Of a stretch of 64,000 bases of DNA, positions 27,641 through 27,888 are shown piece after piece. A program made the translations under genes and the position numbers. The stretch lies in NCBI RefSeq assembly GCF_002854065.1, contig NZ_CP024147.1. One strand, 5' to 3'. This DNA is from Escherichia coli. GTDB lineage: Bacteria > Pseudomonadota > Gammaproteobacteria > Enterobacterales > Enterobacteriaceae. The notes beneath the pieces were generated by a model. It saw nothing but the letters and a program-made list of their open reading frames with translations, was not told the origin of the DNA and did not search any database. How positions within the stretch are numbered: position 1 is the first letter of the stretch; every line of letters starts with the position of its first letter.

Positions 27641-27888
27641 AGTAAGTCCTTTCGTAAAACTTTCGTTTCATTTCGTTTTGCCTATTAACGCCTTTCTATT
27701 AAGCAAATGCAAGCCCACCTTGCCCATTGACGCAAGCTACTCTCGTTTCAGTGACTTTCATTATGTTTCTTTTGTGAATCAGATCAGAAAACCATTATCT
27801 TTCGTTTTATTTTTATCTCACCATAACGCAGTATCAACTGAAACAAAACGAAAGATTAATATCGCAGTAATCTGAACTGGAGAGGAAA
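27641..27888. promoter_or_regulatory. agaR-kbaZ divergent control region with repeated AgaR-operator-like motifs
   Basis: Repeated CTTTCGTTT / TTTCGTTT units at 27648..27678, 27742, 27800..27807 and the inverse AAACGAAAG at 27847..27855. Confidence 0.55.

Follow-up and report, generated by a model that had tools for sequence, protein, structure and literature searches.

Control of a promoter through several operators is a familiar feature of DeoR/GlpR-family repressors, as with DeoR at the deo operons and GlpR at the glp operons. AgaR of Escherichia coli resembles these proteins in being an HTH repressor of the DeoR family that carries a sugar-phosphate sensor domain, and the general features of the two systems are also shared, namely several spaced operators per promoter, a regulator gene divergent from the operon that it controls, and co-regulation by CRP. 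The AgaR regulon was reportedly the subject of a comparative study by Leyn et al. in 2012, and the footprints of Ray and Larson in 2004 are said to have yielded a 24-bp degenerate AgaR consensus, WRMMTTTCRTTTYRTTTYNYTTKK; a search of the full-text literature for this 24-mer returned no match. In PMC3668189, the promoters of agaR, kbaZ (also called agaZ) and agaS are named as the targets of AgaR, and the protein binds these three regions. Mutants in agaR express the regulon constitutively; in an agaR deletion this has been shown for agaA and agaS (PMC3668189), and loss-of-function mutations in agaR raise the expression of agaV and the aga PTS (PMC9628945). An AgaR binding site taken from PkbaZ gave AgaR-dependent and dose-dependent repression when placed in a synthetic promoter, where AgaR represses at both +1 and -61 but never beyond approximately 10-fold at +1 (PMC8667592). 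The AgaR protein of Streptococcus has the same name and acts in the same pathway, repressing genes for GalNAc utilisation, but it belongs to the GntR family and its operator sequences are unrelated, whereas E. coli AgaR is a member of the DeoR family (PMC4694137, PMC5018945).

The DNA analysed here (the window) is a 64-kb stretch of the E. coli chromosome that contains an aga locus. A 1.5-kb query around the spacer between agaR and kbaZ was compared to 5426 complete E. coli genomes, and 5317 of them matched over at least 80% of the query length. Strain CUWW06, in which agaR is annotated, was 100% identical to the 1501-base query. Three genes frame the regulatory regions:

26831-27640, minus strand: agaR (open reading frame; annotation in the identical CUWW06 record; Pfam and NCBIfam matches)
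27889-29169, plus strand: kbaZ (agaZ), first gene of the kbaZ-agaVWEFA operon (open reading frame and annotation)
33256-34410, plus strand: agaS, first gene of the agaS-kbaY-agaBCDI operon (open reading frame and annotation)

From kbaZ onward, the open reading frames and the CUWW06 annotation give the order agaV, agaW, agaE, agaF and agaA, followed by agaS, and positions 27641-27888 are exactly the divergent agaR-kbaZ spacer. The spacer differs from that of K-12 MG1655 at a single base, 27825 (A here, G in MG1655), which is outside the sites described below, so experiments made in K-12 apply directly. We assign a probability of about 0.93 to the reading that AgaR, the DeoR/GlpR-family repressor whose gene adjoins the spacer, uses the repeats found there and those ahead of agaS as its operators. 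The array corresponds to the operators already known to bind AgaR in the aga/gam regulon of E. coli (Ray and Larson 2004, Mol Microbiol 51:813, through PMC3668189 and PMC4694137), with the same genes, positions and sequence as in K-12 and nothing of substance that differs in the operators. A reading of the sequence alone had thus correctly picked an experimentally characterised operator array, and there is no new biology to claim; the fixed spacing, the direct-repeat unit and the possibly dual-role distal unit described below add detail to a known system and do not define a new kind.

The original prediction had placed at least five copies of the repeat unit, in both orientations, in the agaR-kbaZ spacer, and this was borne out. 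Exact TTTCRTTT was found five times in 27641-27888 (at 27661, 27666, 27671 and 27800 on the plus strand and at 27846 on the minus strand), and the spacer holds three forward sites and one inverted site. Similar units that had been located upstream of agaS, at 32945-32970 and 33100-33215, were also present there, with four exact TTTCRTTT (32958 and 33107 on the plus strand, 33188 and 33193 on the minus strand). Five copies of the 9-mer CTTTCGTTT are present in the 64-kb window, each in one of the two aga regulatory regions, compared to an expectation of 0.95 (the mean of whole-window shuffles), and none of 100 shuffles reached five. A repeat search independently recovered the direct families as well as two inverted pairs, one with arms at 27797-27812 and 27841-27856 (94% complementary) and the other with arms at 33107-33120 and 33187-33200 (93% complementary).

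Because the agaR-kbaZ spacer is 64% AT and the units consist of T-tracts with 5- and 10-bp phasing, they might be taken for T-rich, low-complexity or curved intergenic DNA, such as a generic H-NS/Fis target, that has no sequence-specific partner. The density of the units in the two aga regions was nevertheless far above that of AT-rich intergenic DNA: CTTTCRTTT with at most one mismatch had densities of 3.23 and 2.29 copies per 100 bp in these regions but of only 0 to 0.57 in 21 other intergenic stretches (crude calls), two of which are 72% AT. When each aga region was shuffled alone with its dinucleotide composition preserved, most patterns never reached their observed count in 1000 shuffles, and the remaining ones did so in two shuffles at the most. 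In addition, the C and G of CTTTCG are conserved at 0.93 to 0.96 across genera, compared to 0.44 for the adjacent spacer. The explanation by AT-rich background was rejected on the density comparison and the local shuffles, and we consider it extremely improbable.

The anatomy of the sites was described with both the 24-bp consensus and a matrix built for this analysis. The 24-mer WRMMTTTCRTTTYRTTTYNYTTKK, allowing up to three mismatches, matched the window six times, all in the aga regions, compared to 0.17 matches expected; two of the six sites have no mismatch, two have one and two have three. The position weight matrix (PWM) was built from 175 distinct orthologous agaR-kbaZ sites that came only from genera other than Escherichia, and its training set contained no sites from upstream of agaS. 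Its consensus is AATCTTTCGTTTTATTTCTTTTGA, each site being approximately 24 bp long, and the positions that carry most information are CTTTC and another TTTC placed exactly 10 bp downstream of it. As read from these positions, the AgaR unit is a TTTC direct repeat at 10-bp spacing on one helix face and not a palindrome, unlike the palindromic DeoR operator. A scan with an operator matrix had been proposed as a check along with the original prediction, and when it was run with the PWM, the ten best matches in the whole window, with scores from 32.6 to 10.4, all lay in the two aga regions, while the best match elsewhere scored 8.6. The sites upstream of agaS, although absent from the training set, scored 28.1, 21.0, 19.8 and 14.1. 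The following features were assigned within the agaR-kbaZ spacer, with mismatches counted against the 24-mer consensus:

27657-27680, plus strand: predicted operator O1, AAACTTTCGTTTCATTTCGTTTTG (0 mismatches; PWM score 32.6, the highest; core 0.93 conserved in 76 spacers)
27681-27716, minus strand: conserved block beside O1, CCTATTAACGCCTTTCT...AATGCAAGCCC (mean conservation 0.92 and 0.81)
27752-27775, plus strand: predicted operator O2, TGACTTTCATTATGTTTCTTTTGT (1 mismatch; PWM score 26.2; core 0.96 conserved)
27773-27788, strandless: CRP-like site, TGTGAatcagaTCAGA (9 of 10 positions match TGTGA-N6-TCACA; 0.94 conserved)
27796-27819, plus strand: predicted operator O3, TATCTTTCGTTTTATTTTTATCTC (exact CTTTCGTTT at 27799; PWM score 29.8; core 0.96 conserved)
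27834-27857, minus strand: predicted operator O4, AATCTTTCGTTTTGTTTCAGTTGA as written on the minus strand (3 mismatches; PWM score 30.3; core 0.95 conserved)

O1 is located 17-40 bp ahead of the agaR start codon, and the PkbaZ AgaR binding sequence of PMC8667592 falls within it. Positions 27660-27679 read CTTTCGTTTCATTTCGTTTT, and the site given in Table S3 of that paper is CTTTCGTTTCATTTTCGTTT; the first 14 nt of the two are identical and are followed by a 1-nt T shift, and the window is the same as K-12 MG1655 over this block. O1 is probably the site through which AgaR autoregulates the agaR promoter. The conserved block beside it would be a candidate for the agaR core promoter, with TTGCAT as the minus-strand -35 element, and the position of this TTGCAT-bearing block, adjoining O1 at 17-40 bp from the agaR ATG, fits autoregulation. 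O3 has four mismatches to the 24-mer consensus and is the inverted partner of O4, which is located 32-55 bp upstream of the kbaZ start. The CRP-like site shares 3 bp with the end of O2 and keeps a constant 18 bp from the O2 core; genomic SELEX recovered kbaZ, which is on the list of known CRP targets (PMC3105977). The base that distinguishes this spacer from that of MG1655, 27825, falls in a CATAAC between O3 and O4 that is CATAAT in most other genera, and the change might affect the strength of the kbaZ promoter if the CATAAC hexamer is a part of it.

Conservation of the spacer was determined from a scan with the AgaR protein, using one genome per species, that provided 80 Enterobacterales loci from Escherichia, Citrobacter, Klebsiella, Raoultella, Enterobacter, Kluyvera, Salmonella (arizonae and diarizonae), Lelliottia, Yersinia, Serratia, Buttiauxella, Cedecea, Mixta, Pantoea and others; 77 spacers were usable, and the 76 distinct ones were aligned. 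In all 80 loci kbaZ is divergent from agaR, and the spacer is 245-251 bp long in 75 of the 77 usable loci. The cores of the four sites were conserved at 0.93 to 0.96 (major-allele frequency among the 76 distinct spacers), and the stretch between O1 and O2, 27717-27751, at 0.44; the corresponding values in the flanking genes were 0.60 for third codon positions and 0.88 to 0.92 for first and second positions. Distances between sites were also kept, with O2 to O3 being 44 bp in 66 spacers, O3 to O4 being 41 bp in 61, and O1 to O2 being 95-98 bp, about 96. Since 27717-27751 varies in sequence while keeping its length in nearly all genera, a spacing constraint is suggested, possibly one of helical phasing. 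Matches to the consensus numbered 197 in 19 kb of spacers, compared to 4 in 480 kb of flanks. These data provide a site map that is independent of K-12 and backed by conservation, in which spacing as well as sequence is kept across Enterobacterales.

We then considered which protein reads these sites. Pfam assigns HTH_DeoR and DeoRC domains to the AgaR protein of the window, and its score against the NCBIfam AgaR equivalog NF040755 is 465 bits, compared to a cut-off of 260. E. coli has several DeoR-family paralogues, and the models of SrlR, GlpR, DeoR and UlaR match AgaR weakly, so that a paralogous DeoR-family repressor, or else NagC, might be proposed as the regulator that reads the sites. 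However, the motif travels with agaR in 80 of the 80 loci sampled, it is confined to the aga promoters in the window, and the literature attributes both binding and repression to AgaR (PMC8667592, PMC3668189, PMC9628945), which makes another regulator very unlikely. The predicted sites fall in all three of the named AgaR targets, at 27657-27857 for agaR and kbaZ and at 33103-33204 for agaS. The AgaR (DeoR-type) operator reading of the original prediction is therefore supported by the match to a published site, by footprinting across genera, by the matrix from genera other than Escherichia and by the AgaR equivalog match.

Three to four further sites are located upstream of agaS. Three of these are close to the gene:

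33103-33126, plus strand: predicted agaS operator S1, CAAATTTCGTTTTATTTCCTTTTT (1 mismatch; PWM score 21.0; TTCGTTTTATTTC invariant in 7 genera)
33134-33157, plus strand: weaker unit S2, GAACTTTCGATTTCTTTTCTATAG (PWM score 14.1; conserved block in 7 genera)
33181-33204, minus strand: predicted agaS operator S3, TGCCTTTCGTTTCATTTCACTTGG as written on the minus strand (0 mismatches; PWM score 28.1)

Compared to MG1655, the region upstream of agaS has three base differences, one in S1 (33121) and two in S2 (33142-33143). The agaS loci of six other genera were fetched through AgaS homologues, with 4.1 kb per locus, and every PWM match of 12 or more in these loci was upstream of agaS, at offsets of approximately -77, -124, -155 and -257. 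In the seven-genus alignment the S1, S2 and S3 blocks are invariant or nearly so. An S2 equivalent was present at -124/-125 in five of the six other genera, while S3, in which GAAACGAAAG is invariant in 7 genera, had a match scoring 30.7 to 32.3 at -77/-78 in all six. A plausible agaS core promoter is provided by TTGAAC (33132-33137) as the -35 element and TAGATT (33155-33160) as the -10 element, with a 17-bp spacer, and both hexamers are invariant across the aligned genera. With these elements, S2 would lie between the -35 and the -10, S1 upstream of them and S3 downstream. A CRP site at GATCACA (approximately 33099-33105) upstream of agaS was considered and rejected on a reading of the alignment, in which no left half-site was visible or conserved.

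A sigma-70 consensus scan gave two minus-strand matches in the agaR-kbaZ spacer, no plus-strand match for kbaZ and no match upstream of agaS, and the operator positions relative to these two promoters are therefore ones that we infer, from promoter positions taken from conservation and manual reading. If the conserved GCAGTAT/TATCAA is assumed to be the kbaZ -10 region, the transcription start would be near 27841-27844, which would place the CRP site near -61 to -63, O3 over the -35 region and O4 over the start. The convergent pair of O3 and O4 would then enclose the probable core promoter of kbaZ together with its transcription start, and S1 and S3 would bracket the probable agaS core promoter in the same way. 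In the absence of inducer, AgaR bound to its sites would block both RNA polymerase and CRP. Occupancy would probably be cooperative, through an AgaR oligomer that spans several sites, given that the intervals between them are conserved in length but not in sequence; the convergent pairs that appear to bracket both promoters, the fixed spacing and the weak repression from a single site would all fit such an oligomer. Growth on N-acetylgalactosamine or galactosamine, the presumed source of the inducer, would release AgaR, after which cAMP-CRP would activate transcription of kbaZ.

The two inverted pairs, O3/O4 and S1/S3, have arms complementary enough (94% and 93%) that they could instead act as RNA or DNA hairpins, in a leader or an attenuator, and not as protein sites. 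On the geometry described above, though, the upstream arm would precede the probable transcription start, and O1, O2 and S2 show the CTTTC unit as a single copy in direct orientation. Both arms are nearly invariant, and thus there is no covariation between them. A hairpin or RNA role of the inverted pairs was rejected on the lack of covariation and the existence of single direct copies, and we view such a role as exceedingly unlikely.

The fourth unit upstream of agaS, S0, is located at the end of the preceding gene, where two features overlap:

32923-32948, plus strand: terminator-like hairpin immediately past the stop codon of agaA (minimum free energy -10.2 kcal/mol)
32944-32967, plus strand: distal CTTTC unit S0, GGCCTTTCTTTTTCTTTCGTTTTG (3 mismatches; PWM score 19.8)

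S0 starts inside the hairpin and forms the T-run that follows it. The hairpin may be the terminator of the kbaZ-agaA operon, and S0 could then be simply the U-tract of the kbaZ-agaVWEFA intrinsic terminator and not an AgaR operator. Consistent with this, the hairpin lies right after the agaA stop codon, is followed by a T-rich run and is retained in six genera, including a compensatory change at one pair; the sequence past CTTTC diverges between genera, and Enterobacter soli has no PWM match of 12 or more at this position. The hairpin is nonetheless weak in E. coli, with a z-score of -1.21, and was not called by a simple consensus terminator scan. Also counting against a purely terminator role, CTTTCTTTT(T/C)CTTTC is invariant in 7 genera, as are both TTTC elements, 10 bp apart (7 of 7 genera), and a PWM match of 13.8 to 22.5 was present at the S0 position in five of the six other genera, consistently approximately 257 bp from agaS and, where both sites were called, approximately 101 bp upstream of S1. 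We regard the purely terminator role of S0 as a serious contender at somewhat less than even odds. S0 may thus be terminator, operator or both, and is possibly an auxiliary AgaR site. For the unit at 32945-32970, the original prediction of an AgaR operator stands in part: the conserved unit and its PWM match were confirmed, but its operator role is less certain because the unit shares sequence with the T-tract of a conserved hairpin that resembles a terminator.

A REP-like palindrome pair of the BIME type occupies 32970-33062, between the agaA hairpin and the agaS promoter, and is absent from the six other genera. Its palindromes, for example GTCGGATGCGACGC/GCGTCTTATCCGAC and GGCCGGATAAAGCGTTTGCGCCGCATCC, are presumably REP elements by their resemblance to the REP consensus. 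This stretch pushes S0 from approximately 101 bp to approximately 159 bp upstream of S1. An extended possibility is that a fixed-geometry multi-operator repression complex exists across Enterobacterales in which S0 would serve as both U-tract and auxiliary operator, looping to the agaS promoter approximately 101 bp away. We consider this combined proposal unlikely, but if it were true, the BIME insertion of E. coli, with S0 at approximately 159 bp, could alter the loop. The fixed spacing and the overlap of S0 with the terminator-like hairpin are refinements that could guide an experiment on looping or cooperativity.

Outside the operators, the window differs from the K-12 aga locus in that it has agaW-agaE-agaF-agaA, that a stop codon interrupts agaA and that agaC carries an IS1. 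The agaW-agaE-agaF-agaA segment, approximately 2.3 kb at 30052-32346, is deleted in K-12 MG1655, and its presence here means that the Aga PTS genes are complete in the window. The agaA gene (31772-32905), for GalNAc-6-P deacetylase, has an in-frame TAG at codon 238 (32483-32485) and is therefore a pseudogene in this strain; the same gene is annotated with an "internal stop" in CUWW06, and agaA is replaceable by nagA (PMC3668189). The IS1 is 768 bp long (36086-36853, with the InsA open reading frame at 36141-36416 and that of InsB at 36335-36838) and lies within agaC, with a target duplication of approximately 10 bp relative to K-12; it should have a polar effect on agaD and agaI. In CUWW06, which is otherwise 99.98 to 100% identical, the IS1 is instead in the kbaY-agaB spacer (window equivalent approximately 35358-35366). 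The prlF-yhaV toxin-antitoxin pair is directly downstream of agaR (25977-26776), as in K-12. After agaI, CUWW06 carries a RelE/ParE-type toxin gene and an HTH gene where K-12 has yra fimbrial genes, and positions 36854-40000 of the window, which extend into this stretch, are 100% identical to CUWW06.
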